Assembly (NCBI GenBank): GCA_005777235.1 | Contig: SXND01000007.1 | Span: 5,694-69,693, forward strand | DNA length: 64,000 nt | Direction of reading: 5' to 3' | DNA from: Pseudomonadota bacterium | Lineage (GTDB): Bacteria; Tectomicrobia; Entotheonellia; Entotheonellales; Entotheonellaceae | Shown: piece by piece, positions 320 through 64,000 of the stretch | Numbering within the stretch: position 1 is the first letter of the stretch | Layout of the letters: each line of letters starts with the position of its first letter | Position numbers and translations under genes: made by a program | The notes under the pieces: generated by a model | Told to the model about the DNA's origin: nothing | The model's input: only the letters and a program-made list of their open reading frames with translations | Databases searched by the model: none

Positions 320-1671
320 CACACATGACGCTCCTCACGATTGTCGAAACGCGTGAATTCACCACGAAAGAGCAGTTTTACAGTCCCTGTTGGACCATTG
401 CGCTGTTTCGCAATGTTAATCTCGGCTACGCCTTTTTCCTGGCTGTCCTCGTGGTACACGTCATCACGGTAGATGAGTGCCACGACGTCGGCGTCCTGTT
501 CAATGGCGCCAGATTCGCGCAAATCCGAGAGCTGTGGTTTCGGAGGCTTCCGCTGTTCCACCGCCCGACTCAACTGTGACAAGGCAATGACCGGCACGTT
601 GAGCTCTTTCGCCAGGGCCTTCAAGGAGCGCGTAATCCCAGAAATTTCCTGCTGGCGGCTCTCCGTGCGGCCACGGGTCTCCATCAGCTGGAGATAATCG
701 ACGATGATCAACGACAGGTCACCTAACTCCGCCTGGAGACGACGTGATTTGGCGCGAATATCGAGGGCGGATTGCGCGGGGATATCGTCAATGTAGATCG
801 GCGCTCCGGCCAGGACGGCGGCAGCATCTGTCAGAGTAGACCAGTCACCTTGACCCAAATACCCGGTGCGCAGCTTGGCGGAATCCACCCGAGCTTTGGA
901 ACAGAGGAAGCGCACGACGAGTTGTTCTTTGGACATTTCGAGGCTAAAAATAGCCACTGGGCGCTTGACGAGCACCCCCACATGCTCGGCAATGTTGAGG
1001 CAAAACGCCGTCTTCCCCATGCCAGGGCGTCCAGCAATAATAATCAAGTCAGACGGCTGTAAGCCCGCCGTCTGCCGATCAAAATCCGTGAAACCCGTCG
1101 GCAGCCCTGTGACGAGTTCCTTACGCTCCGAAAGTTGTTCGAGACGCTTAAAACTGCCTTTGAGAATGGCATTAATATGCACAAAACCGACCGTGGTTTT
1201 GCGCTGGCCGATCTGCAAGATAGCCTGCTCGGCCCGATCCACCAGCGTATCCGCGTCTTCGGCGTCTTCATAACTGTCCGTAATAATCGTGGTGCCCGTG
1301 TGAATCAAAGCCCGCAAGATCGCTTTTTCCCGTACGATCTGCGCATGATGGAGGACATGCGCCGCTGTGGGCACCGCATTGACTAACTCGGCCAGATAGG
1401 GCGGCCCACCAGATGACTCATAGCGCCCTTTCCGGCGCAACCGGTCACCCACCGTCAGGAGATCAATGGGTGCGTTGGCCTGGAACAGATCAATCATCGC
1501 CTGAAAGATCCAGCGGTGTGCCTCTTGGTAAAAATCGCGCTCTTGCAAGAGGTCCAACACGCGCACTAGCGCTTGATTATCTTGCAAAATCGCCCCAAGG
1601 ACACTCTGTTCCATCTCCACGCTTTGCGGCGGGAGCTTGCGAAGCACGTCGAGCTGCCCATTGAATGCCAT
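319..1671 (-). CDS. dnaB: replicative DNA helicase DnaB
   Basis: 450-aa ORF. It has the N-terminal DnaB signature PPQSVEMEQSVLGAIL, Walker A GRPGMGKTAF and Walker B LIIVDYLQLM. It follows rplI, as in many bacteria. Confidence 0.95.
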   Translation of the reverse strand: MAFNGQLDVLRKLPPQSVEMEQSVLGAILQDNQALVRVLDLLQERDFYQEAHRWIFQAMIDLFQANAPIDLLTVGDRLRRKGRYESSGGPPYLAELVNAVPTAAHVLHHAQIVREKAILRALIHTGTTIITDSYEDAEDADTLVDRAEQAILQIGQRKTTVGFVHINAILKGSFKRLEQLSERKELVTGLPTGFTDFDRQTAGLQPSDLIIIAGRPGMGKTAFCLNIAEHVGVLVKRPVAIFSLEMSKEQLVVRFLCSKARVDSAKLRTGYLGQGDWSTLTDAAAVLAGAPIYIDDIPAQSALDIRAKSRRLQAELGDLSLIIVDYLQLMETRGRTESRQQEISGITRSLKALAKELNVPVIALSQLSRAVEQRKPPKPQLSDLRESGAIEQDADVVALIYRDDVYHEDSQEKGVAEINIAKQRNGPTGTVKLLFRGEFTRFDNREERHV

Positions 1672-1686
1672 GGCGCTACCTCCGAC

Positions 1687-2130
1687 TTATTCGGCAGTCA
1701 CGCTCACCTTGAGCAGCGCCGACGTGGCCGCCGGTAAACGGACGGGCACCGTAAATTCGCCCACGCTCTTGATCGGTTGGTCGAGCTGGATGGCACGACG
1801 ATCGACCTCGAAGCCGGCGGCTTTGAGGGCATCGGCAATGTCCATGTTTGTCACCGAGCCGAAGAGTCTGCCGTCATCCCCAGCCTTGCGGGCAAAACGG
1901 TATGCCCCGGCTTGCAGTTGCCCAGCGAGCGCTTGGGCATCCTTACGGGCGCGGACAATGCGGTGCTCCCGCAGGCGTTGTTCATGTTCCATCTCACGCT
2001 TATTCTTGGCCGTAGCAGCGACGGCGAGACCGCGGGGGATGAGGAAATTGCGGCCATAGCCATCAGCCACGTCGACAATGTCTCCTACATCACCGACATG
2101 TTCAACATCGCGCATTAAAATGATTTTCAT
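1687..2130 (-). CDS. rplI: 50S ribosomal protein L9
   Basis: MKIILMRDVEHVGDVGDIVDVADGYGRNFLIPRGLA is a typical L9 N-terminus. I used the internal ATG at 2130, which is preceded by AAGGAGAG. The track ORF extends to 2202. Confidence 0.9.
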   Translation of the reverse strand: MKIILMRDVEHVGDVGDIVDVADGYGRNFLIPRGLAVAATAKNKREMEHEQRLREHRIVRARKDAQALAGQLQAGAYRFARKAGDDGRLFGSVTNMDIADALKAAGFEVDRRAIQLDQPIKSVGEFTVPVRLPAATSALLKVSVTAE

Positions 2131-2156
2131 CACGCCTCTCCTTTCCAACTGCTCGC

Positions 2157-3152
2157 TTAGGGCAGCATGGAATGCCGCCGCTGCCGGCGAAAATCCACCC
2201 ACAGATCAAAGAGACCAGCGGCGGTGCAAATGATAACACAGAAAGGGCCCGCGACTAGGAAGAGCAACGCGAGCAGAAAACACTGTACGCCGAGGGGCAC
2301 GGGCAGCCGTCGGCCCCAAAAGAGTACAATCGCCACGCCCTGTAAGAAATACAGCGCCAGGGTGATGAGCAAGAGATTTACGCCAATCGTTCCAACAACA
2401 TCCGAAGGCACGAAGAGCGACGCACCACTCGCGAGAAACACCCATACCAGATATTCCGACGCTTTCCAGCCGGCCAAGTCGTCGGGCGGCAGTGCCAGGG
2501 GTGGTTGACTGCGCTGGCAATAGCGTCGTGCCAGGAGGTAGTTGAGGAGATTGAGGCACAAGTGGCCGATCACAATCAGCGCTGGCAGTACAATCAATAA
2601 TAATTGTGGCAACGCCTCAATGAGGACTGCCCATTGCTCCGCGTCACCTTCCTGGAACTGTTCGAGGGTCCGTACATACTCCTGCGAGGCATCCACGATT
2701 TTCTGCACGTAACGCATCACGAGTGCGTCGAGTGGGAGCTGCATGAGGAGACTATACGCCACCGCCACGAGCATTCCCACCACACACGGCACCGCAATAC
2801 TACAGAGCAACGTCTGGGAGATCGACCAACGGCGTCGGGTAGCCCAGGAGATCCCCCAGGCTATCAGCGCGCATTGACCGAGAAACACCAGCGGCTGTAG
2901 ACGTCCATCCAGGAGGATCACGCCGCTTTCGAGGCCCAGCACACTCACGACATACTGCCAGGGATACTTGCTGGCGAGCACAATGAACGGAAACGGCGCG
3001 AGCGCTGTCAACAAGCCTCCGCCCAGAGGAACAAAGATCGGCAGGAGTGTCAACACCCCAGACAGCAGTGCGAGATACAATACCTCGGCATGGCCCACGA
3101 CAACTTTCATGATCCACTCTGGCGGTACATCCCTGCCGGGCACCGCACCCAA
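2157..3152 (-). CDS. polytopic membrane protein, DUF2232/YybS-like (tentative)
   Basis: 331-aa ORF that is hydrophobic throughout, with many predicted TM helices. It sits between rpsR and rplI, the position occupied by yybS in other lineages. The start is uncertain; an alternative is the ATG at 3110. Confidence 0.55.
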   Translation of the reverse strand: MGAVPGRDVPPEWIMKVVVGHAEVLYLALLSGVLTLLPIFVPLGGGLLTALAPFPFIVLASKYPWQYVVSVLGLESGVILLDGRLQPLVFLGQCALIAWGISWATRRRWSISQTLLCSIAVPCVVGMLVAVAYSLLMQLPLDALVMRYVQKIVDASQEYVRTLEQFQEGDAEQWAVLIEALPQLLLIVLPALIVIGHLCLNLLNYLLARRYCQRSQPPLALPPDDLAGWKASEYLVWVFLASGASLFVPSDVVGTIGVNLLLITLALYFLQGVAIVLFWGRRLPVPLGVQCFLLALLFLVAGPFCVIICTAAGLFDLWVDFRRQRRHSMLP

Positions 3153-3155
3153 GGG

Positions 3156-3416
3156 TCATTCAACGGTAAACGGCATCAAGGCGAGGTGTCGGGACCGTTT
3201 GATCGCCGTGGTGAGCTGGCGTTGGTGCCCAGCACAGTTCCCTGAGATACGACGCGGGATAATTTTTCCACGCTCCGTGATGAGGTTCCGGAGACGCCGG
3301 ACATCTTTATAGTCGATCAGCGTCAGTTTATCGGCGCAAAATCGACAAATTTTCTTGCGCAAAAAGCGCCGGCGTTTGCGAGCCGCCGCTTTCTTTTTCG
3401 AGGACATCATCGCCAT
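3156..3416 (-). CDS. rpsR: 30S ribosomal protein S18
   Basis: The sequence [59 protein letters not shown] is a canonical S18 core. Confidence 0.95.
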
Positions 3417-3442
3417 ATGTGCTTTCCTCTGTGCCCCAAAGT

Positions 3443-3952
3443 CTAAAAAGGAATATCATCATCTTCAAATGCTGGAGGAAGATCCATGTCGCTGCCGGCC
3501 CGTGCTGGCCCTGGACGTGAGCGTTCCATGCCTGGGCCTGGGTTCGAGCGCCCCATGCCGGCACCTGAGGCCGGACGTTCCGTACCGGTGCCGGGACTCA
3601 TGCGCTCCATGCCATCCTCACGCCCGCGTGACAGAAATTGAACCCGTTCGCCAAGGATCTCGTGTTTGCTGCGTTTCTGGCCATCCTGGCCCTCCCAACT
3701 GCGCCACTGCAAACGGCCTTCAATAAGCACCTGACGCCCCTTGCTGAGGTATTCACTCGCGACTTCGGCCTGCCGACCGAAGACCACGACATCAACAAAG
3801 CACACTTCCTCTTTGCGCTCTTCACCTTGTCCGGGGCGTTGGGTATTCACCGCCAGACCAAAGGTCGTCACGGGAGTGCCGTTTGGGGCATAGCGTAGTT
3901 CAGGATCACGGGTCAAATTACCCATCAAAATTACTTTATTGAGGCTTGCCAT
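3443..3952 (-). CDS. ssb: single-stranded DNA-binding protein
   Basis: The OB-fold N-terminus is [22 protein letters not shown] Gly/Pro/Met-rich linker follows, and the acidic C-terminal tip is DDDIPF. Confidence 0.95.
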
Positions 3953-3988
3953 CTGAAGAGCCTCCTCACCGCAGACAAGTCGCGATGC

Positions 3989-4516
3989 TTAGTCGTTATC
4001 GTCATCGTTATCGTCAAGACCGCCGTCACCACCAAAACGTGGACCATCACCGTGCATCGGACCATCGTCCGACATGCCCCGCCGTGGGTAACGGCCTTCC
4101 CCACGGCCCTGGAATCCTCCGTCGCCGCGGAAATCCCCACGACGTCCACTCCGGCGCCGGTCATCACGGTCGTCGTCACGGCCATCATCGTCCGGCACAC
4201 GCGTGAAGCCCGTGAGATGCTCTTCTTTCTCAAAACGTACGGTGAGATACCGCAGGACACGCTCATTGAGCCGATACATGCGTTCGAGTTCGAGGAGGGG
4301 CTCGGGAGTCGTCCGAAAATGGATCAGCGTATAGTAACCGTAGCGCTGTTTCCGTATCACGTAGGCCAGCCGGCGTTTGCCACCACGGTCGACACGAATA
4401 ATTTCTACGCCTTTGCCTTCAAGGAGTTGGACCGTGTTTTGGATACCAGCCTCGGCCTCTTCATCGGTCATCTCTGGGTGTAAGACGAACACCGTTTCGT
4501 ACAAATTCTTGATCAC
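3989..4516 (-). CDS. rpsF: 30S ribosomal protein S6 with a long D/R/G-rich C-terminal tail
   Basis: The S6 core reads YETVFVLHPEMTDEEAE...RRLAYVIRKQRYGYYTLIHF. It uses a GTG start preceded by AAGGAG. The rpsF-ssb-rpsR order is conserved. Confidence 0.9.
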   Translation of the reverse strand: MIKNLYETVFVLHPEMTDEEAEAGIQNTVQLLEGKGVEIIRVDRGGKRRLAYVIRKQRYGYYTLIHFRTTPEPLLELERMYRLNERVLRYLTVRFEKEEHLTGFTRVPDDDGRDDDRDDRRRSGRRGDFRGDGGFQGRGEGRYPRRGMSDDGPMHGDGPRFGGDGGLDDNDDDND

Positions 4517-4595
4517 GTTGCTACAAGCTCCTTATGGATTCTAGCCCGCCAAGCGAGCAAGGAGAGCACCCTAGACGCCGCGGACGCCACGTGCG

Positions 4596-5129
4596 TTAGC
4601 GCGGTGCCTCTATGAGGGCTATCACGTGGGTGACAGCCTGCGCGATCATCCGGTCGCGCACGTCGGCCTCCTGGGCCGGAAACGGGGCCAGGACATACTC
4701 CACCACTTCATCTTTGTGCGTGGGCTTCCCCACACCGAGACGAATACGCACGAAGACATTGTCCTGCAGGCACGCAATAATGGAGCGGATGCCAAGATGC
4801 CCAGCATCCCCCCCCTGGTATTTGAGCTTGGTTGTCCCTACGGGGAGGTCAATATCGTCATGCACGACGATCAGCAGCTCTCCCTGGCGTCGATGTCGCC
4901 GCACTAACGGCGCGACACTGCGGCCACTGGCATTCATGTACGTTTGCGGTTTCACGCAGAGGACCGCATGGTCACCAATACGCCCGGTCCCACACAACGC
5001 CTCGGCCTCCCGCTGCCGCATGGGAATATGACAGCGCTCTCCTAGGGCGTCAAGGACGTCGAACCCCAGGTTGTGACGGGTATGGCGATAGCGCTGCCCA
5101 GGGTTACCTAACCCGACAATCATGTCCAC
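4596..5129 (-). CDS. pth: peptidyl-tRNA hydrolase
   Basis: The N-terminus IVGLGNPGQRYRHTRHNLGF is the classical Pth signature. Confidence 0.9.
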   Translation of the reverse strand: MDMIVGLGNPGQRYRHTRHNLGFDVLDALGERCHIPMRQREAEALCGTGRIGDHAVLCVKPQTYMNASGRSVAPLVRRHRRQGELLIVVHDDIDLPVGTTKLKYQGGDAGHLGIRSIIACLQDNVFVRIRLGVGKPTHKDEVVEYVLAPFPAQEADVRDRMIAQAVTHVIALIEAPR

Positions 5130-5171
5130 AGAAGCCTCATAGTGACGCTGGCCCTCGGTCTGAGGCGCTGC

Positions 5172-5774
5172 TTAGGCGCTCGCTTCTGCTGTCGCACTGG
5201 CCGCGGCCGCGGCGTCAATATGCGCGGCGACCAGCGCTTCTTCGGCATCTGTCACTAACGTCGCGCCTGCCGGGAGCACCAGTGACCCAGCTTTCAGCAT
5301 GCTACCAGGCTGGATATCCGACAGATCAACGGCAAGCTCATCAGGAATATCGCCTGGCAAGCATGCCAGCTCGACCTCACGCCGGAGATATGTCAGCGAG
5401 GCCTTCAGACTCTGCAGACGGCTGATAGGCTCATTGATAAAGAGCAGCGGAATGGAGACCAAGAGCGTCTTTTGCATATCCACCCGGTAGAAATCCGCAT
5501 GGATGATCCGGCGCGAAATCGCGTGGATCTGCACCTCGCGCAGAATGGCCTGACAGCTTTCCGGCCTGTCGCCGTCTATGAGCACATCGAGAATCGTGTT
5601 GTCACCGGACTCAGACTGCTGAATGGTGAGGAGATCTTTCTCGACCACCGCAATGGGCACCGCCGTCCCGTTGCCATACACCACCGCTGGCAACTGACCG
5701 GCACGGCGGAGCTGACGGGATATGCCCTTTCCGGCCCGGTCGCGCCGTTGCACGACAAGCTTCACACTCTCCAT
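5172..5774 (-). CDS. rplY: 50S ribosomal protein L25 / general stress protein Ctc
   Basis: 200-aa ORF containing RRAGQLPAVVYG. It has the long Ctc-type form with an Ala-rich C-terminal tail and lies upstream of pth. Confidence 0.9.
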   Translation of the reverse strand: MESVKLVVQRRDRAGKGISRQLRRAGQLPAVVYGNGTAVPIAVVEKDLLTIQQSESGDNTILDVLIDGDRPESCQAILREVQIHAISRRIIHADFYRVDMQKTLLVSIPLLFINEPISRLQSLKASLTYLRREVELACLPGDIPDELAVDLSDIQPGSMLKAGSLVLPAGATLVTDAEEALVAAHIDAAAAASATAEASA

Positions 5775-5793
5775 ACTGCGCTCCTCATTTTCC

Positions 5794-6738
5794 CTAATCG
5801 AACAGTGAGCTCACTGAATCGTCACAGTGGATCCGTTTGATGGCTTCCCCCAGCAGTGGGGCGACCGACAAGACGGTAATGCGCTCCCAGGCCTGCGCCT
5901 TTGCGCCGAGAGGAATCGTATCCGTAATCACCAACTCTTCCAGATCGGATGCCGCTAAACGTTGCATCGCCGGCCCAGACAGGACGCCATGCGTTGCACC
6001 GGCATACACCCGACGTGCCCCCGCCTGGCGGAGTGCCGTGGCGGCTTCAAGCAGGGTACCCGCGGTATCGACCATATCGTCCACCACGAGGACATCGCGA
6101 TCGTCCACATCGCCCAGAATGTGCATGACTTTGGCGACGTTTTTCTTCTCCCGATCCCGGCGTTTATCAATGATACCGAGCGACACATCCAAGCGCTTGG
6201 CGAAGGCCCCAGCCCGCTCCACCCCACCCGCATCCGGCGAGATCACACTCAAGTTACGATAGGAACGACGCTGAAAGTAGTCAGTTAAGACAGGAGCCGC
6301 AAAGAGGTGGTCTACCGGGATATTGAAATAGCCTTGCAGTTGTCCGGCGTGCAAATCGAGCGTCAACACCCGATTCACCCCTGCCGCGGTAATCAAGTCA
6401 GCCACGAGTTTCGCCGTGATCGGCACGCGTGGCTTGTCCTTCCGATCCTGCCGCCCATACCCAAAATAGGGTAACACCGCGGTAATCCGCGCTGCTGAGG
6501 CCCGGCGACAGGCGTCGGTCATGATCAGCAACTCCATGAGGTGCTGATTCACGGGATGGCAGGTGGATTGGACTAAAAACACATCTTTGCCACGGACGTT
6601 CTCACGAATCTGGACAAAAATCTCCCCGTCACTAAAGTCGGAGACATCAATGCACCCCAGCCCAATGTCTAGATACTTGCAGATCCCCTGGGCTAGTTGA
6701 GGATTCGCACGCCCTGTGAAGAGTCGCAAGTCCCTCAT
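5794..6738 (-). CDS. prs: ribose-phosphate pyrophosphokinase
   Basis: Contains DLHAGQLQGYF and the PRPP-binding loop VVDDMVDTAGTL. Length is 314 aa. Confidence 0.95.
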   Translation of the reverse strand: MRDLRLFTGRANPQLAQGICKYLDIGLGCIDVSDFSDGEIFVQIRENVRGKDVFLVQSTCHPVNQHLMELLIMTDACRRASAARITAVLPYFGYGRQDRKDKPRVPITAKLVADLITAAGVNRVLTLDLHAGQLQGYFNIPVDHLFAAPVLTDYFQRRSYRNLSVISPDAGGVERAGAFAKRLDVSLGIIDKRRDREKKNVAKVMHILGDVDDRDVLVVDDMVDTAGTLLEAATALRQAGARRVYAGATHGVLSGPAMQRLAASDLEELVITDTIPLGAKAQAWERITVLSVAPLLGEAIKRIHCDDSVSSLFD

Positions 6739-15025: not shown

Positions 15026-17415
15026 TCAGTACGACAGGGTGGCGCGACGTTTACCTGTCGATTCATCTTGCCGTATGATACGTGGCGTCAGAAAAATGAG
15101 CAATTCATCACTTTCGTCCTGCTCTTGATCCTTACGGAAGAGCCAACCGAGCACAGGGAGACTCGATAATCCTGGAATGCCAGCACGGTTGGATTGGATG
15201 GTGCGGCGGTAGAGACCACCGATCACGACCGTATCGCCGTCTTTAACCAACATGTCGGTATTGGCTTCACGGGTGGTAATCGTCGGAATCCCGTTGACGA
15301 CACGGGAGAAATCCGCCTCGTTCTTGGTCGCGGTGATTTTCATCCCGATGAAGTCATTGGGGGTGACATGTGGCGTGACTTTCAAGGTAATACTTGCATC
15401 CACAAAGTCCGTCCGGGTGCCTTCAGCGGAAGTCGTCTGGACCGGGATCTTCCGTCCGCTCTGGATCTGCGCTTCCGTGTTATCTAACGTGGCAATTTTC
15501 GGGCTGGAAATAATCTTGCCACGCCCTGACGATTCAAGCGCTGACAATTGGGCATCAAGCACCGAGCCACCGATACTCGCCAGGGAAAAGCCAATGGCGC
15601 CGCCTGCACCGGTCGCAACGGCGGCGGGGAGATCCAGCAAGAAATTCGCCGGAGCCGCCGGTCTCGCCAGCCCACCACCACCGCTACCGGCCGGACCGCC
15701 CCCACGGACGTCAATGCGATTTGGGAAGGCTCGGTCGGTGATTTGCGAATGCGCCAACCCCAGTTGAATGCCCAGTTCACGTAAGAAGGTGCGCGTGGAT
15801 TCGACAATACGCGCTTCGATCATCACCTGGGGCGTCGGTCGATCCAGCTTTTCGATGAGGGACAGCGCTTCAGCCAGACTTTTCTGTGTGTCCGTAATAA
15901 TCATCGTATTGGTGCGGACATCAATAATGATCGTGCCACGTTTACTCAAGATCTTTTCGAGATTAGGACGCAGCTCCTTGGCACTCGCATAATTGGCCGG
16001 CACGATGCGGGTGAGTAACGGTTCTGCCGCCACTTCGGTAATCTGGGCCTTCAAGCGCTCCTGACGTTCCGCCGTAAATTTTTCCAGAGGTGCGACCCGG
16101 ATGATGTTACCGCCACGTTCTTGTGCCAACCCGTTAATTTTGAGAATGACATCGAGCGCTTGATCCCAGGGCACATCCACCATACGGGTCGTGACTTTTC
16201 CCTGCACATCGCCCCCTGCAATAATGTTGACCTTCCCCACCTCCGCAATGAGACGTAAAATATCGTTGATATCTGCATCTTGAAAATCGAGGGAGACTTT
16301 CTCGCCTTTGTACACAGGCCCATCCGTACTGCTACTCGTAGAGATGCCCTCGCTGCGCTCCGCCACTGGCGCGCTGTCGGTACGGACGGCTGGAGCGGCA
16401 GAGGCGCCTCGGCGGACTAGAGGGGCAATTTGGGCCACGCGCGGCATGACCGGCGTCCGCGCGGCGGTGGAGGAGACACGTGTAGACGGGACAGCAGCGA
16501 GGGCCGCCGCAGGCAGTGGGCCTGGGGCACTTGCTGCTTCCACCGCCAGGGTGGGGGCTGGTTTGCTCAGGGTGAGCCGAATCGTCGTCGTATCCTGCTG
16601 CACTTCAAACGTGGCGGTAGTCTGCAAATAGACCGTGACTTTGACAGAGGGTATCGGCGTATCGGTCACGGGCAGCGCTTCCACATGTGTGACCACGCCC
16701 GCGGGATCCTGGACGGCAAGCGTTTTGTGCTGTAGAGGATCAAGAGAGGCTGGACGAATGTCGAGCGCGAGCCGTGGGGGATTGGACTGCTGTCGTACCT
16801 GGACTTGTGGGGGAGCGCCAGTGGTGACGAGGGAAAGCAGCCCACGTTGCTCGTGGGTTTCAAACGCCATCCCCGTAATGCGCGTGCCGGCAGAGGCGGC
16901 AGAGGCGGGGACAGAGTCCTCCTGGCCCGCAGGAGTTGGCACACGCGGGAGCCCAGGCGGTGGGGTCTCCACCACGTGGTTCCCAGTATCCGCCAACGTA
17001 ATGTGCAGCTGACGGCCTTGGAGTTCAACCGTATGTGTGGTCATGGCCTGCAACGCAATTTCCAAGCGGACGGCCTGTTCCTCGGGTACAAGCACAGGTT
17101 CAATATGCTGCACGATCCCAGCCACCGGCAGCGGCTGGGGTAAGGGGCCGAAAGTTGCTCGAGGGAACGTGAGGACCAGACGGGGGGGGTAGGGAAGGCC
17201 ACTGCTGTATATTCCACCACGGCGGTAGCTTGGACGACAATACGCACGTGGTCGGGCAACGTCTCCGTCGTAATTCCCGTAATCATGGCCGGGCTTCCAG
17301 GCCGCTGCACTCCTACGGCTGGCACCTGGGGCCGTGCAGGGCTACAGCCCCCACATACCAAGGTCATGGCGAGGAGTCCTATGCACACACCGACAAGACG
17401 GTGGGAGAGGTTCAC
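15026..17415 (-). pseudogene. pilQ: type IV pilus secretin PilQ, split by a 1-nt frameshift in a C8 (plus-strand G8) homopolymer
   Basis: The track gives two overlapping ORFs. ORF 17415..17041 encodes a lipoprotein signal (LVCGGCS) and the start of an AMIN domain. ORF 17125..15026 encodes the rest of the AMIN domains plus the secretin domain (IPGLSSLPVLGWLFR). Adding one C at 17182-17189 joins them as ...AFPTPPRLVLTFPRATFGPLPQPLPVAGIVQH... Confidence 0.8.
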
Positions 17416-52417: not shown

Positions 52418-54589
52418 CTATCCACCATGCAGGGCGATCAATGCACCCCTTTGCGGTATCAGAGGGAGCTTGAACACCTGCACGGCACGGACCAAAAGCC
52501 CAGCATCGTCCACCAAGCGTATGGTCTGCCCGCCCTGGGCGATGAGCTGTTCGTTGGTTCTCCGCGTACTCTCAACAATTCTACCAGCGTAGTCACGCAG
52601 GGCACGACTCACCTGCGCCTGTGCCTGCGCGCCAGCGGCAATTTTGTGGACTGCGGACACCAGCGCTGCGGTACTCTGCTGGGTCTGGCGCATTTGCTCC
52701 CCAGCCTCTCCGGCTAACCGGCTGCCATCGACTACTTGGCTAATGACCATGGCCATGGTGGTCGCCGTATCCGACATCTCGGTCTGGATATTATGCACCA
52801 AATGCGTAATCTGTTCGGTAGCCTGCTGGGCAGTTTCCGCCAGCCGTTGCACTTCGTTCGCTACCACGGCAAAGCCCCGGCCTGCTTCTCCGGCCGTGGC
52901 GGCGTGCATACTGGCGTTGAGGGCCAGGATGTGCGTGCGTTCCGCAATGCTGGTGATCAAACTCACGGCTGTACCGACCTCGTGCGACCGTTCCCCCAAG
53001 AGCTTAATACGCTGTTCAGTCTCACGGATGGTATCCCGGATGCTGTGAATACCGTCCACCGTGTTGCTCACAGCGGTTAGCGCGGTTTGCGTCTGCCCAA
53101 TCGCGTCTTCCGCCGCCACGTCACAGTCCTGGGCCAGCGCAGCGATTTGCTGCATGGCGGTTGCCGCTGCGGCCAGTTGGGTCGCCGTCTGGGTGACTTG
53201 TTCCCGCTCGGCCTCAGCGAGGGCACGCACTGTATCGCCCTGCACCTGCACCTCTTGTGAGGTAGTAGCCACACGGCCAGCAATGTGGACCACCGTGGTC
53301 AGCACCCCGGCCATCTCTTCGGCTAATTGGTTGAGCGCGTCCGCCACAGGCCCCGTGGCGTCTTCTGTCATAGGAATCTGCACCGTGAGATCGCGCTCAC
53401 ACAGCTGATGCACGGCATACAGCAAGCCAGTGACGGCGTCGTTGAGGGCCTCGTTCTCCTGCTCAGCTTCCGCAAGACGAGCCGCGCGCTCGGCTTCATA
53501 GAGAGCGCGCCCATCCAAAAGGCTATCGAAGGCGTCTCCCAAGGTCGCCAGTTCATCACGCCCTCGTATCTTGGTCCGGACTTCTCTGTCGCCAGCGATG
53601 ACGCGAGAGACGATGTGCTGCAGATAAAGTAACCGACGCCTGAGGGATGACCCCACTAACCCGAGCGACAGGATAAGCAGCACGGCAACCGAGACCAACG
53701 CCACCCCAAAGACCCGATGAATCTGGGTAATCCGTATGGACCCGTGCTGGCGGTTTTCTTCCATAGCTTGCAGGGTCATAGAGCCAAGGGAGGACAGCAG
53801 CGGGGCGGCAAAGCGTTGTTGCTGGTGCAATTTAGCGAGTGAGCGCTCCCGTTGTTTGACGCGTTCCGCTAGACGCAGGAAAGCCTCGTGATACGCATCA
53901 AGCCTGTGCACGAGCTGCGTTTTCTCTGCCTCAGTCGCGTGCCCGGCCTGCACGGCATCACTCAACGTCTTTTTCGCCGCTGACAAGTTCCCGGCTTGGA
54001 TAGCTTTACCTTGGAGCATGAACTCGCTCTCATACTGTTGTACGGTCACCCAGAGTTCGTGCAGCGCTGTCGCCTCTTGACGCTGACCACTGACCGGCGC
54101 TCCCAGCGTAGGCAACGCTTGCTCCACCGCCGTGGCCGCCTGACGTACGGTGCCGCGTAGGCCACTCTCTGCATCGAGGCCAATGGCGATCGTATAGCCG
54201 ATGGTCTCCTGCGCCGCACGTTGAAAGGCGCTGACCGCTGCAGTAAGCTCTAGGCTCCGCGCGCGCGTTTGCTCGGTCAGCGCCAACCGCTCAAGCGTCG
54301 CAGAAGCCATATAAGCTTCGGACATCGTGGTCGTGAACTGGCTCATGAGCGACGGCGTGTTCTGGATGAAAAAATCTTTCAAGAGTAATTCACTCTCAAG
54401 AGTTTTCGCCCCGGCGAGAGCCGTAGAGATGGTGAACGCGTTGAGGGCTTCCGTGCGCTGTACTACCTCCTCGTGTACCTGCACGAGGCGGAAGTACGTA
54501 GCGCCGACACCGGCAAAACCCACCAGCAGGATGCCGGCAACTGCGGTGAGCTTGTGAATGATGCTCATACGTTGAAACATTGTCGTCAT
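52418..54589 (-). CDS. methyl-accepting chemotaxis protein
   Basis: 723-aa ORF with an N-terminal TM helix, a periplasmic helical sensor, a second TM helix and a HAMP domain. The highly conserved signalling hairpin reads ERTHILALNASMHAATAGEAGRGFAVVANEVQRLAE. Confidence 0.9.
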   Translation of the reverse strand: MTTMFQRMSIIHKLTAVAGILLVGFAGVGATYFRLVQVHEEVVQRTEALNAFTISTALAGAKTLESELLLKDFFIQNTPSLMSQFTTTMSEAYMASATLERLALTEQTRARSLELTAAVSAFQRAAQETIGYTIAIGLDAESGLRGTVRQAATAVEQALPTLGAPVSGQRQEATALHELWVTVQQYESEFMLQGKAIQAGNLSAAKKTLSDAVQAGHATEAEKTQLVHRLDAYHEAFLRLAERVKQRERSLAKLHQQQRFAAPLLSSLGSMTLQAMEENRQHGSIRITQIHRVFGVALVSVAVLLILSLGLVGSSLRRRLLYLQHIVSRVIAGDREVRTKIRGRDELATLGDAFDSLLDGRALYEAERAARLAEAEQENEALNDAVTGLLYAVHQLCERDLTVQIPMTEDATGPVADALNQLAEEMAGVLTTVVHIAGRVATTSQEVQVQGDTVRALAEAEREQVTQTATQLAAAATAMQQIAALAQDCDVAAEDAIGQTQTALTAVSNTVDGIHSIRDTIRETEQRIKLLGERSHEVGTAVSLITSIAERTHILALNASMHAATAGEAGRGFAVVANEVQRLAETAQQATEQITHLVHNIQTEMSDTATTMAMVISQVVDGSRLAGEAGEQMRQTQQSTAALVSAVHKIAAGAQAQAQVSRALRDYAGRIVESTRRTNEQLIAQGGQTIRLVDDAGLLVRAVQVFKLPLIPQRGALIALHGG

Positions 54590-60247: not shown

Positions 60248-60856
60248 TTATGCCCCAGGCAGGGCCGCGAGGCGTGACAGCAGGGTGTCGACCGCTGCCG
60301 CTCCTGGTGTGGTGATGCCCACCGTCAAGCGTGAGGCCTCCTCACGGCGATGCTCTACGGCCACGGGCTGGCCCGGATACACCTGCGCGAGGAACGGCGT
60401 CAGATGCGGTGCCAACTCCGCGTAGGCCTCCGGGGTGTTGGGCGCCCGGAGGCGGTCGTTACAGCGTAATAACAGCTCATCCTGGTGAAACCGGAGGCGT
60501 CCCTGCAAGGCTGGATGCGTCGCCAGACGTTGGCAGGCCGTGAACGCGCACTGCCATACCGAGCGCAACCGTGCCACGGTGTTGGGTAGGGCGCGACGGC
60601 TCAGATGCGTTTCACGACGACGGCTGTACAGCAGGCCTAGACGCCCGGCAGCGAGGTCCATGGTGTAATGCGCATCATGCGCCACCAGGACCACCCCAGG
60701 ACCGTCTGGCACGTGGCGGTAATCTGCCACGTCGATCAGCAGTTCATCGAGCTGCTGCGTCTGAATAAAGTCATGGAAGACCGGGATAAACTCCTCAATC
60801 TCTACACTCGAACTCTGGTCCACAAACACTTTTAATTCGTACTTCAGGGTCTCCAC
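60248..60856 (-). CDS. hypothetical protein (202 aa), apparently co-transcribed downstream of sulfite reductase
   Basis: The ORF starts 18 nt after the reductase stop on the same strand. Its composition is ordinary. I recognise no family. Confidence 0.5.
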   Translation of the reverse strand: METLKYELKVFVDQSSSVEIEEFIPVFHDFIQTQQLDELLIDVADYRHVPDGPGVVLVAHDAHYTMDLAAGRLGLLYSRRRETHLSRRALPNTVARLRSVWQCAFTACQRLATHPALQGRLRFHQDELLLRCNDRLRAPNTPEAYAELAPHLTPFLAQVYPGQPVAVEHRREEASRLTVGITTPGAAAVDTLLSRLAALPGA

Positions 60857-60874: not shown

Positions 60875-63133
60875 TTAGGGCAGGGCCGGTTGTGGATTGA
60901 GCCGGTTGTAGCACGCATAGGCGGCCTCAATGAACAGGCGGGCCTCTTCAATACGACGCCGCACTGCTTCCAGACTCAGCCCCTCAAGGCCCTCGTCGTG
61001 GGCATGAAACAGGTACAGGGCAAATGTTGGCCCGGCAAAGGGGTCATAAAAGAGCTGCGTGTCATAAAAACGCTGCCGGAATTCGGCCACCAGGTACTCG
61101 AAATCCTCTTTGACATCAATGAATTGGACCTGGATCAGCGCTTTGGCGGCTTGCAGCATCGCGGCATAGGCCGTCTGGGCGGCTTTGGCACTCTCGCCGT
61201 TCTCCAGGAAAAGTTGTGCCTCAAACACCTGCCGTTCGCTGGCGGCTAACCCGAACTGGGTCATGGACACTACCTCACCGGCGCACTCACCAATACCCAT
61301 ATCTCCCAGGCTGTACTCCCGGGGATTGCCCCAGTCGGCGTAGTAAGAGCGGTCCTCGGCGTAGGACGGCACCCGCGTCAGGTCGTCGAGCAGCGCCCGC
61401 AAGCGGGCTTTGCCGATGCGCTTAATGAAGGTCTGGAACGTGTCCCCGTCCTGACGCTCTTTGGCGTAGAGATCCGTCAGCCGCGCCATGGCGTCTGGGA
61501 TACGTTTGGAGGGAATCGCCACCGTGGAGAGCCCGTAGGCCCCAGCGTTGTCGGTGCTTTGGCCACCGAGCACCACCTGGAAATGTGGCACCGCATGATT
61601 GCCGACTTTCCGACTGACGCCATAGAAACCAATGTCGGCAATGTGATGCTGTCCGCAGGAATTAAAGCAACCGCTGACTTTGACATTGAGCGGTCTGACC
61701 GCGGCGTCGAGGCTACCATTTTGCGCCAGAATGCGCTGCCGCAATTCCGCCGTCAGCCCCCGTGAGGACGAAATCCCGAGTTTGCAGGTGTCCGTGCCAG
61801 GGCACGTGGTAATGTCCGCCAGTGTCCCAGCTCCATCTTGTCCTAACCCGGCCGCCACCAGCTCCGTATACAGGGCTGGGAGATCCGCCTGACTGATCCA
61901 GCGTAGGACGATATTTTGCGCCACGGTCGTGCGCGCCCGCCCGCCGTTGTAGCGCCGAGCAATGGCGGCGAGGGTGCGCATTTGCTGGGACGTCAGATCG
62001 CCGATGGGGAGACACAGCGTCACCACCGCGTAGCCGGTCTGCCGCTGCGCGTAGACGTTACTGGCATGCCAGGACGCAAAACCCGCGGGATGCGGGCCAG
62101 TGCCAAGCACACCAGCTGGACGGGTGGGCTGGTCGTCCGTGCCGTGCAGGTCGCTGAGATAGACCGTCCAACGTGGGTCTTCCGGCAAAATGGCTCGCTC
62201 TTCCTGTACCAGACGGCGAAATTCGTCAATACCCAGCTTGGCAATTAAAAATTTCAGCCGCGCCCGGGCCCGATTCCGCTTTTCCCCCAGGCGTGCGAAC
62301 ACGCGGCACACGGCCTGCGCCAACGGCAGTAACTCGGCTTCCGACACAAAGGCGTCGAGCAACTGTGCCTGATGCGGCACGGTCCCGAGGCCACCGCCCA
62401 CGTAGAACTCAAAACCACGCTGGATCTCGCCATGTTCCACCCGCGTGCTGGCAATGAGGCCCAGGTCATGCATATTGACCAGACCGCAGGCATCCTGCGC
62501 GCACCCCGAAAAGGCTGGTTTAAATTTGCGACCAAAATCCTGCGTGTCCTTGTGGCCTAGTAAAAAATACGTCAGGGCATGAGCATACGGCGTGATGTCA
62601 AAACCCTCATCACGGCACACCCCCGCCCGTGGGCAGCCAGTGACATTGCGCACGACATTGCCACAGGCTTCCAGCGTGGTAATGCCCACGGCGGCGAGGC
62701 GGCGCATGAGATCCGGTGTGTCTTCAATATGAATAAAGTGCAGTTGAAAATCCTGACGGGTCGTGATGTGACAAATAGCGTCGGAGTATTCTTCCGCCAG
62801 GTCGGCCAGGGTCTCCATTTGGACCGCGTTCAAGCCGCCAAAGGGAATTTTGATGCGCTGCATTCCCGGGGCATCCCACATGGTCTGCGGCCCTTTGGTG
62901 AGAGCGCCGGAAGGATACGGCAACTGTTGGACGCTCACGCCGTCATGTCGCTGCCCATTATCATAGCGTTGCCCGTAGACGCCCCGGCGCAGGCGCGATT
63001 CCGCAAAGACGCGCTCGTCGATCTTCCCCTGCTGCCGTAGCGTGATCTGCGTCTCGTAAATATGAATTTCTTCATCCATCTCTGGGGCAATCTGGCCCTG
63101 CAAGGCGCCTTTCCAACTCAGAGCATGCGGCAT
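60875..63133 (-). CDS. sir: ferredoxin-type assimilatory sulfite (nitrite/sulfite) reductase with a ~190-aa helical C-terminal extension
   Basis: It has two nitrite/sulfite reductase ferredoxin-like half-domains. The siroheme/[4Fe-4S] cysteine motifs are TGCPGTDTCKLG and SGCFNSCGQHHIADIG. Residues from ~560 onward form an extra helical domain. Confidence 0.85.
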   Translation of the reverse strand: MPHALSWKGALQGQIAPEMDEEIHIYETQITLRQQGKIDERVFAESRLRRGVYGQRYDNGQRHDGVSVQQLPYPSGALTKGPQTMWDAPGMQRIKIPFGGLNAVQMETLADLAEEYSDAICHITTRQDFQLHFIHIEDTPDLMRRLAAVGITTLEACGNVVRNVTGCPRAGVCRDEGFDITPYAHALTYFLLGHKDTQDFGRKFKPAFSGCAQDACGLVNMHDLGLIASTRVEHGEIQRGFEFYVGGGLGTVPHQAQLLDAFVSEAELLPLAQAVCRVFARLGEKRNRARARLKFLIAKLGIDEFRRLVQEERAILPEDPRWTVYLSDLHGTDDQPTRPAGVLGTGPHPAGFASWHASNVYAQRQTGYAVVTLCLPIGDLTSQQMRTLAAIARRYNGGRARTTVAQNIVLRWISQADLPALYTELVAAGLGQDGAGTLADITTCPGTDTCKLGISSSRGLTAELRQRILAQNGSLDAAVRPLNVKVSGCFNSCGQHHIADIGFYGVSRKVGNHAVPHFQVVLGGQSTDNAGAYGLSTVAIPSKRIPDAMARLTDLYAKERQDGDTFQTFIKRIGKARLRALLDDLTRVPSYAEDRSYYADWGNPREYSLGDMGIGECAGEVVSMTQFGLAASERQVFEAQLFLENGESAKAAQTAYAAMLQAAKALIQVQFIDVKEDFEYLVAEFRQRFYDTQLFYDPFAGPTFALYLFHAHDEGLEGLSLEAVRRRIEEARLFIEAAYACYNRLNPQPALP

Positions 63134-63161
63134 ACCAGGCTTCCTTTCCTGCCTACATCAT

Positions 63162-63196
63162 AAAAAAAGCCCACCCCCTGCTGTGAGGGAGTGGGC
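63162..63196 (-). terminator. strong intrinsic terminator inside the sulfite reductase leader (attenuator terminator)
   Basis: The minus-strand RNA is GCCCACUCCCU-cacagc-AGGGGGUGGGC followed by U7. The stem is 11 bp including one G-U pair. The U-tract ends 28 nt upstream of the reductase ATG. Confidence 0.75.
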
Positions 63197-63221
63197 TGGT
63201 GTACTGAGGTCTTCGAGCAAT

Positions 63222-63329
63222 CTATCCGCTCAACCTCCCGGCTCCACCCCCTCCGGCAGCGCAACAACAACACGCGCAACAACAGCAACAACATGGGGTA
63301 GCGCAGAGACAGGCTGACAGAAACATCAT
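63222..63329 (-). CDS. Cys-rich leader peptide (35 codons, 12 Cys)
   Basis: I checked the manual translation codon by codon. It reads ATG ATG TTT CTG TCA GCC TGT CTC TGC GCT ACC CCA TGT TGT TGC TGT TGT TGC GCG TGT TGT TGT TGC GCT GCC GGA GGG GGT GGA GCC GGG AGG TTG AGC GGA TAG, which gives MMFLSACLCATPCCCCCCACCCCAAGGGGAGRLSG*. It is too short for the ORF track, and the SD is weak. Confidence 0.6.
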   Translation of the reverse strand: MMFLSACLCATPCCCCCCACCCCAAGGGGAGRLSG

Positions 63330-63379
63330 AGTGCGGATACTCGCCTAGGGTCGTTTTGGCAAAAGATGATGATGTGCGT

Positions 63380-63409
63380 AAGCTACCACAGCATGCTATC
63401 GTCTGTCAA
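63380..63409 (-). promoter_or_regulatory. candidate promoter for the Cys leader/sulfite reductase transcript (TTGACA-18 nt-TAGCTT)
   Basis: On the minus strand, TTGACA is at 63409..63404 and TAGCTT is at 63385..63380. It lies ~50 nt upstream of the leader ATG. The -10 element is weak. Confidence 0.3.
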
Positions 63410-63463
63410 CGTGCGCCGCTCTACGTGGCGCTTTGTGTGGCGCTGTGCCAGGAGGAGTGAGCC

Positions 63464-64000
63464 ATGTCCACCGATACCGACCGCTTACAAGCGGCTCTGG
63501 CCCGCTTTGACGCCGCCAATGCCGAAGATCCCAGTACAGAAGTGTTTAATGGCACCGTCTATCCCAAAGAACTGCTGTATGCCCAGCGTATGACGGCCTG
63601 GCTCACCACCGTGGCGCCGGAGGCCTCGGAAGCCCTGCGCCTGGCGGTGCGCTGTCAGCACATGCGGCGCTGGAGCATCCCCCGGCAGACGTATCCCATG
63701 GATCGCGAGGGTTACCTGCGCTGGCGGACGACGCTGGCACGGTTCCATGCTGACACCGCCGCGACCATCTTGCGTGACGTGGGGTACGACGAGGCGACCA
63801 TTCTCCGTGTGCAAACGCTGCTCCGCAAAGAACGCCTCAAGCGTGATCCAGAGGTGCAGTGTTTGGAAGACGTCATCTGCCTGGTCTTCCTTGAACACTA
63901 CTTGGCCGATTTTGCGCTGCAACACGAGGAAGAGAAAATTCTCGATATCCTACGCAAGACGTGGGAAAAGATGTCACCACATGGGCAGGACATCGCGCGC
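63464..64000 (+). CDS. DUF4202-like protein (C-terminus beyond the window end)
   Basis: Not in the ORF track because there is no stop in the window. The ATG at 63464 is preceded by GGAGGAG. The translation MSTDTDRLQAALARFDAANAEDPS...AVRCQHMRRWSIPRQTYPMDREGYLRWR... matches my recollection of DUF4202. Confidence 0.55.
   Translation, partial: MSTDTDRLQAALARFDAANAEDPSTEVFNGTVYPKELLYAQRMTAWLTTVAPEASEALRLAVRCQHMRRWSIPRQTYPMDREGYLRWRTTLARFHADTAATILRDVGYDEATILRVQTLLRKERLKRDPEVQCLEDVICLVFLEHYLADFALQHEEEKILDILRKTWEKMSPHGQDIAR

Follow-up and report, generated by a model that had tools for sequence, protein, structure and literature searches.

The window analysed here is a 64,000-nucleotide (nt) stretch of contig SXND01000007.1 from an Entotheonellaceae bacterium. 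Near its end, immediately upstream of sir, a gene for a ferredoxin sulfite reductase (Sir), lies a short open reading frame (ORF) dominated by cysteine codons, followed by an intrinsic terminator. A copy of the 3' arm of that terminator is embedded in the ORF. We consider this element to be a classical ribosome-mediated transcription attenuator keyed to cysteinyl-tRNA, a reading that we hold at a probability of about 0.8 on computational support. Its sequence elements recur in close relatives, and two folds of nearly equal energy are available to the leader RNA, one with the terminator and one without it. Analogous but non-homologous cysteine-rich leaders precede sulfite reductase genes in other lineages.

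Cysteine-codon leader and competing predicted RNA folds

All features of the element lie on the minus strand, and the intergenic region presents, in order, a -35 hexamer, a spacer, an extended -10 element, a 5' untranslated region (UTR), the leader ORF, the terminator and the Shine-Dalgarno (SD) sequence of sir. The leader ORF, identified from the ORF listing and a minus-strand reading (63329..63222), consists of 35 codons plus UAG and encodes MMFLSACLCATPCCCCCCACCCCAAGGGGAGRLSG. Twelve of its 35 codons specify cysteine, at positions 7, 9, 13-18 and 20-23. Codons 13-18 form a first hexad (63276..63293), which is the main predicted stall site, and codons 20-23 form a second run of four (63261..63272). 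Cysteine makes up 34% of the leader codons versus 1.06% in 22 long ORFs of the window, and four of the five matches to (TGY)4 in the 64 kb fall inside the leader ORF (expected, 0.19). A bias toward wobble-read UGU among the leader cysteine codons (8/12) was not significant (p = 0.10). The public gene call for the contig, which comes from ENA metagenome ERZ27257034, places at 63118-63294 (minus strand) a 58-amino acid (aa) poly-Leu ORF that passes through the terminator and overlaps the start of sir. This call is probably spurious, with the Cys-frame leader left unannotated there.

The terminator (63197..63162) consists of a stem of 12 pairs, 8 of them GC, a 6-nt loop (CACAGC) and a U7 tract (63168..63162). 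Its stem begins 24 nt after the leader stop codon, and 28 nt separate the end of the U-tract from the sir ATG (63133). Because the upstream gene, which encodes a DUF4202 protein, is divergent, the terminator cannot belong to another gene. Four segments of the leader RNA are relevant to its formation. The two terminator arms are segment 3 (AGCCCACUCCCU, 63197..63186) on the 5' side and segment 4 (AGGGGGUGGGCU, 63179..63168) on the 3' side. Segment 2 (GGAGGGGGUGGA, 63254..63243), within codons 26-29, is a copy of the terminator 3' arm and supplies the 5' strand of the antiterminator. The window contains just two copies of the 9-mer CCACCCCCT, one at 63171-63179 and the other at 63244-63252 (expected, 0.73). 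Segment 1 (UGCGCUACCCCA, 63305..63294), directly 5' of the Cys hexad, pairs with segment 2 and is a fourth segment that an initial annotation, made from the sequence, did not include. Between segments 2 and 3, an inner hairpin (63239..63206) holds the UAG stop codon and is present in the minimum free energy (MFE) folds.

The calculated helix energies are -16.8 kcal/mol for 1:2, -23.5 for 2:3, -22.9 for 3:4 and -18.2 for 1:4. When the RNA 63372..63162 was forced into either state, the best terminator fold (1:2 with 3:4) reached -73.5 kcal/mol and the best antiterminator fold (2:3 nested in 1:4) -73.0 kcal/mol, a gap of 0.5 kcal/mol. The terminator and antiterminator folds are thus modeled as mutually exclusive and isoenergetic in the window. 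In the comparison of ten sequences, namely the window and the nine close relatives described below, ribosome-free transcripts running from the predicted transcription start site (TSS) to segment 4 adopted the 1:2 plus 3:4 fold in 10/10 cases, the predicted default-off state. Transcripts spanning segment 2 to the end of segment 3 adopted the 2:3 fold, again in 10/10. Nothing relevant was found in Rfam for the region at E values up to 10, and the whole window returned only two tRNAs at the gathering score.

Every sequence feature that the initial annotation had described was reproduced by these analyses. It had described a 35-codon, 12-Cys ORF, all coordinates and sequences of which were confirmed by re-reading; a strong terminator, which an independent scan recovered as a 12-pair stem with a 6-nt loop and T7 (63197..63168, -22.9 kcal/mol); and a 28-nt gap between that terminator and the sir ATG, which was also found. 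The duplicated 9-mer that it reported is indeed present in two copies only. The antiterminator that it proposed as exclusive with the terminator corresponds to the 2:3 duplex, and the two exclusive folds of comparable energy for which it suggested a check are the forced folds given above.

A promoter for the leader can be read from the sequence. The -35 hexamer TTGACA (63409..63404) is kept in the seven relatives whose aligned sequence reaches it, while the extracts of L087, L095 and L124 begin inside or after it. The extended -10 element, TGG-TAGCTT (63388..63380), follows 18 nt past the -35, and its TGGTA and last T are invariant in alignment A1. A consensus promoter scan missed this -10 because just three of the six hexamer positions match; its sole candidate near the leader was on the plus strand. 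The conserved -10 ends approximately 50 nt 5' of the leader AUG, so placed that transcription would start near 63375-63373, about 45 nt 5' of the AUG. The 18-nt spacer GACGATAGCATGCTGTGG (63386-63403, minus strand) is almost invariant over the ten sequences; this conservation exceeds the need of a spacer, which may therefore double as an operator for some regulator.

Both reading frames are preceded by candidate ribosome-binding sites. An SD-like AGGCGAG (63346..63340) lies 5' of the leader ATG; AGG(T)G hardly varies across the alignment, and in the relatives it stands 8 nt from the ATG. The SD sequence of sir, GGAAAGGAAG (63149..63140), contains an AAGGA that is invariant in alignment A1. An internal sir promoter was considered at TATGAT (63162..63157) and rejected, since no acceptable -35 accompanies this hexamer, relatives do not conserve it, and the scan finds no promoter there.

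Conservation and proposed ribosome-dependent switching

The 202-aa gene that follows sir (p202) was used as a lineage-specific probe of metagenome contigs. It yielded nine close relatives with complete upstream DNA (L085-L089, L091, L095, L098 and L124), in which Sir is 81-85% identical. Common to all nine are the promoter, the AGG(T)G, the ATGAT, the leader frame, segment 2 (GGAGGGAGTGG), the terminator with its T-tract (GCCCACYYCCTC...GAGGRRGTGGGC), the sir SD and the divergent DUF4202 gene. Their leaders contain 11-15 Cys codons and end in NTGGSG*. L129, a closer relative that is cut at a contig end, reads C10-A-C3...GGGAGGGUGCGG, followed after 18 nt by the stop, much as in the window, and has a T9 terminator; the Cys run, segment 2 and terminator are all retained in it. 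The closest relative by p202 is P0008, at 93% identity. Over the ten sequences, all 12 pairs of the terminator stem form in 10/10 (100% paired), and the 10 pairs of the 2:3 antiterminator are 98% paired. The pyrimidine-rich stretch equivalent to segment 1 pairs with segment 2 in 10/10 sequences, at -15 to -20.5 kcal/mol. Leader codons 1-12, in turn, vary almost equally at the three codon positions (10/9/10), as expected if the Cys codons alone matter and the peptide sequence is irrelevant. The folds, together with the conservation of the Cys-run ORF and the terminator, support the initial annotation in reading the element as an attenuator of the trp/his type keyed to cysteine.

In the mechanism that we propose, transcription would start at the conserved extended -10 promoter and give a leader RNA carrying all four segments. 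With plentiful Cys-tRNA, the ribosome would cross the 12 Cys codons and segment 2, which would then be either covered or re-paired with segment 1 behind the ribosome. Segment 3, left free, would pair with segment 4, and RNA polymerase would stop at U7, 28 nt before sir. With scarce Cys-tRNA, the ribosome would stall at codons 7-21, mostly in the first hexad, where it would cover segment 1 or sit between segments 1 and 2. Segment 2 would then pair with segment 3 as soon as the latter is transcribed, so that the terminator could not nucleate, and the polymerase would read into sir and probably also into the 202-aa gene.

The geometry of the leader is consistent with this sequence of events. Assuming that the ribosome covers 15 nt upstream and approximately 13 nt downstream, counted from the first nucleotide of the A-site codon, an A site at codons 5-17 leaves segment 1 covered and segment 2 free, one at codons 18-21 places the ribosome between segments 1 and 2 with segment 2 still free, and one at codons 22-23 begins to cover segment 2. 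An equilibrium model that allows pairs to span the ribosome predicts antitermination for A sites 1-17, except codon 13. The initial annotation had argued that a stall in the first Cys hexad would free the antiterminator, whereas a ribosome reaching the stop codon would disfavour it. The first part agrees with the footprint geometry. The second part is explained by masking in the nine relatives, where the stop codon TGA starts 1 nt after segment 2, so that a terminating ribosome masks segment 2; in the window no such masking is expected.

Several observations weigh against our interpretation. The first concerns this stop codon, which in the window lies 19 nt beyond segment 2. A ribosome terminating there would not cover the antiterminator strand, and termination is therefore better explained by 1:2 re-pairing behind the ribosome. 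Furthermore, when folding is limited to the RNA downstream of the ribosome, the model favours the terminator at equilibrium as soon as segment 4 is present; with segment 1 masked, the modeled terminator probability P(term) ranges from 0.4 to 0.97 in the window, and it approaches 1 in the relatives. The two ribosome-mask models disagree, equilibrium cannot decide the matter, and the switch would have to be kinetic; given that the terminator wins at equilibrium, read-through would require 2:3 to form before segment 4 is transcribed. In the trp attenuator, judging from published helix energies, the terminator is likewise favoured at equilibrium. The leader SD of the window is weak and is separated from the AUG by 10-14 nt. 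Shuffled sequences fold as stably as the whole leader does (z = 0.19), a value that we treat as uninformative because a switch has competing helices. L091 and L098 each carry one mismatch in 2:3, and the 1:2 pairing joins a polypyrimidine to a polypurine stretch in a register that shifts between sequences. The initial annotation had also suggested looking in relatives for a Cys-run ORF with a terminator, and for covariation. The ORF and terminator are present in 9/9 relatives with complete upstream DNA, but no pair changed on both sides in either helix among the ten similar sequences, because the clade is too narrow for compensatory covariation. With sequences so alike, conservation alone cannot prove the structure.

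Analogous leaders and rival explanations

A Sir scan with one genome per GTDB species gave, among the matches listed, 80 reference loci with 60-67% identity, which include Acidobacteriota, Binatia, Latescibacterota, Anaerolineales and other groups. Among small ORFs (sORFs) with clustered Cys codons, a hairpin with a T-tract within 200 nt was found for 27/41 on the sir strand versus 4/31 on the opposite strand, and approximately 25 of these 27 lie upstream of sir or its operon (Acidobacteriota, Anaerolineales). The Cys-rich leader families of different phyla are unrelated and non-homologous, with the Cys codons as their sole common feature. Terriglobia leaders read ...CICCCCNSAPLCGGIAR and MCCCTVPAPTCGERA, Vicinamibacterales leaders ...ACCCCCMEAP... 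and ...ACCCCPEAAEAPTLTVV, and Anaerolineales leaders MMTFGMFCMCMACMCMCCMTTHRAVQHA..., in which Cys and Met codons alternate. The latter Cys/Met leaders lie 5' of sir and are followed by terminators, for example MMTFGMFCMCMACMCMCCMTTHRAVQHAMAGYR (L015 195-278, L017 1919-2020, L026 3721-3819, L046 3735-3836 and L054 3720-3818); with alternating Cys and Met codons, they would sense both sulfur amino acids. In the Vicinamibacterales locus L016, a poly-Cys sORF (MRMHWHARFGGACCCCCMEAP...) with a strong terminator (400-569) heads an operon (582-6271) that encodes a TauE-family permease, a PAPS/APS reductase, siroheme synthase, uroporphyrinogen methyltransferase, Sir and p202.

Pairing between these leaders and their terminators was also examined. 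The best leader partner of the terminator 5' arm in the reference loci has a mean z of -1.2 versus shuffles, with several values from -2 to -4, and this partner usually ends within the last sORF codons, as the model needs. The set used included a few false sORFs, and these partner data are moderate, not decisive. Visual inspection of Terriglobia leaders for 2:3 covariation showed patterns that were suggestive but not clean.

A sister clade, with Sir 71-73% identical, has a leader with only 2-3 Cys codons and a conserved peptide, MNxG(A/S)T(V/I)IQGxSSRRTHxTGGxCC (alignment A2: L099 ~270-374, L101, L103, L109 1211-1330, L111 415-534 and L116). Its variable columns number 11, 6 and 22 of 25 at the three codon positions. 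Such concentration at third positions indicates selection on the peptide itself, which may add nascent-chain-dependent stalling.

Three other explanations of the window element were weighed. The first is translational attenuation of the mycobacterial type, in which the leader RNA sequesters the sir SD, a stalled ribosome frees it, and the hairpin with its U-tract is incidental or only partly active. For polycysteine sORFs, SD unmasking is the one mechanism with experimental proof (10.1101/834739), and in the 267-nt MFE fold of the window the sir SD region does pair with leader codons 2-7. However, this pairing partner differs between sequences, and the leader:SD duplex is no better than shuffles in 10/10 of them (z from -0.35 to +1.9); sequestration of the sir SD was rejected on these two grounds. 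The 12-bp GC-rich hairpin with its U-tract, by contrast, is conserved in 10/10 sequences, and the conserved -10 and SD-like AGG upstream of the ORF point to an mRNA that is not leaderless. We therefore regard a translational mechanism as unlikely.

Alternatively, the sORF could be a genuine gene for a small Cys-rich peptide, for instance a metal- or redox-binding one, with its own terminator and with its proximity to sir reflecting a shared function. The conservation of the ORF, its start and its SD would suit such a gene, as would the purifying selection on the leader peptide of the neighboring clade, and Canestrari et al. leave a role of this kind open for some mycobacterial sORFs (10.1101/834739). 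In the clade of the window, however, the non-Cys codons vary without the codon-position bias that a functional peptide would show, the number of Cys codons drifts from 11 to 15, and the leader peptides of other phyla agree in nothing but cysteine. Moreover, sir has no conserved promoter of its own, with just 28 nt from the terminator to its ATG. A peptide gene is accordingly very improbable.

The last explanation, for which we see equally little room, takes the TGY run as a non-coding triplet repeat or as a Leu frame (UUG/CUG) and the terminator as a roadblock that is constitutive or controlled by a protein or small RNA; (TGY)n can indeed be read as (GTT)n or (TTG)n, the lengths of its indels are divisible by three, as after replication slippage, and an automatic gene caller annotated the 58-aa poly-Leu frame, but that frame runs through the terminator into sir, the SD-preceded ATG sits in the Cys frame in all sequences, the Anaerolineales and clade 2 leaders keep Cys codons without being simple repeats (CMCMACMCMCC; invariant TGCTGT), no Rfam family matches and the downstream pathway yields cysteine, not leucine.

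Cysteine-responsive transcription attenuation thus remains our preferred account of the window element. A broader proposal, which we put forward tentatively and at less than even odds, is that Cys or Cys/Met leaders with intrinsic terminators form a widespread, repeatedly invented "sulfur amino-acid ribulon", and that they may be the principal means by which assimilatory sulfate reduction is controlled in several little-studied phyla, represented by this lineage, Terriglobia, Vicinamibacterales and Anaerolineales. On that view, the window element would be the first complete cysteine attenuator of the terminator/antiterminator kind.

Putatively regulated genes and relation to known systems

The sir gene (60875..63133, minus strand) encodes a 752-aa sulfite reductase of the NirA/SirA ferredoxin type. 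It contains two NIR_SIR and two NIR_SIR_ferr Pfam domains, and its best match in the PDB is NirA of Mycobacterium tuberculosis (1zj8, query residues 91-573), which is a sulfite reductase. Sir scores below every curated NCBIfam cut-off. Beyond the NirA-like core, it carries a C-terminal extension of approximately 170 aa (residues ~590-752) with no domain or structure match.

The p202 gene (60248..60856, minus strand) starts 18 nt after the sir stop codon and is probably co-transcribed with sir. In almost all of the 80 reference loci, and likewise in the metagenome relatives, it is the gene directly after sir. There are 1568 homologues of its 202-aa product, and all 120 listed are named "hypothetical protein". 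Searches of p202 against Pfam, NCBIfam and PDB sequences gave no match. Its AF2 model is confident (pLDDT 81, pTM 0.83); no PDB fold matched this model at E <= 0.001, and a weak likeness (TM ~0.3) to proteins of the coproheme decarboxylase/chlorite-dismutase type was seen. If the attenuator operates as proposed, it would provide functional evidence that a NirA-like enzyme below all curated cut-offs works in cysteine synthesis, and it would tie this conserved 202-aa partner to the cysteine pathway.

Divergent from the leader promoter lies the DUF4202 gene (63464-64000, plus strand). Just 5' of its start codon, a plus-strand hairpin (63413-63431) is followed by TTTGTGTGG, and a promoter-like site is present on the same strand at 63314-63341; together, these may be a 5' UTR element of the DUF4202 gene. 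A DUF4202 gene also stands beside sir-p202 in Thermoanaerobaculia and Holophagales loci, which suggests a link between DUF4202 and sulfite reduction. Elsewhere in the window, genes for a PilQ-type secretin (15026-17125, minus strand) and a methyl-accepting chemotaxis protein (52418-54589, minus strand) suggest a motile or piliated diderm bacterium.

To our knowledge, cysteine is a notable gap among the textbook terminator/antiterminator attenuators, the only proven Cys-codon sensor, that of mycobacteria, being translational; we also know of no sulfur regulators described for the Acidobacteriota and Chloroflexota lineages considered here. A four-segment cysteine attenuator with non-homologous analogues would indicate that the classical design has also been applied to sulfur assimilation. 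The element would not surprise a specialist, but it would fill that gap and suggest that uncultured phyla have turned to Cys-codon leaders convergently and on a broad scale; it also offers a compact, testable cysteine-responsive regulatory part.

The closest architectural parallels are the enterobacterial attenuators of trp, his, leu, thr, ilvGMEDA and pheA. Like these, the window element has a promoter-proximal ORF rich in codons for the end product, alternative 1:2, 2:3 and 3:4 helices, and a terminator just before the first biosynthetic gene, and the position of the ribosome would select the fold. In thermodynamic stability the terminator equals or exceeds the antiterminator, as it does in trp. 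In contrast to the enterobacterial attenuators, the element would sense cysteine, through a much longer run of 12 codons (up to 15 in relatives); it shares no sequence homology with them and belongs to a soil bacterium.

Among systems that sense cysteine, the best established are the leaderless polycysteine sORFs of M. smegmatis, for which cysteine-responsive attenuation via SD unmasking has been proven (Canestrari et al. 2020, 10.1101/834739; Mol Microbiol 114:93). By their statement, cysteine attenuation mediated by an upstream ORF (uORF) was previously undescribed. The claim of the initial annotation that cysteine-keyed attenuators exist only as sparse predictions is consequently outdated, since this translational case has been demonstrated. 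The window element resembles the mycobacterial "Cys ribulon" in placing a polycysteine sORF first in a cysteine-metabolism transcript, in the proposed signal, stalling at low Cys-tRNA, and in its independent origin at several loci. However, the mycobacterial sORFs are leaderless and act on translation, whereas the window element has a predicted 5' UTR of ~45 nt with an SD-like motif, a conserved terminator and no detectable SD sequestration; it does not belong to the mycobacterial leaderless translational class.

Cysteine leaders have also been predicted for cysS. The uORFC-8-2 motif 5' of cysS in Rhodobacterales combines two Cys codons with an intrinsic terminator (Brewer et al. 2021, PMC8632094), and a two-Cys leader was proposed for cysS of Deinococcus deserti (de Groot et al. 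2014, PMC4007540). Like the window element, both have been predicted to attenuate transcription through ribosomes that read Cys codons in a uORF. They differ in having two Cys codons and in controlling a tRNA synthetase rather than sulfate assimilation; they are unrelated in sequence, structure and taxa, and they are predictions too. In the full-text literature, of which our coverage is incomplete, so that this is absence of evidence only, we found no polycysteine leader with a terminator 5' of sulfite reductase or sulfate-assimilation genes outside Actinobacteria. For Actinobacteria, Cys leader peptides 5' of cys and cbs operons were predicted by Seliverstov et al. (2005, PMC1262725), who detected no hairpins of the terminator type and proposed that Rho is required. 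Those leaders and the one described here are alike in being short ORFs with Cys runs 5' of cysteine biosynthesis genes. The window element differs from them in having a terminator and an alternative helix, each explicit and conserved.

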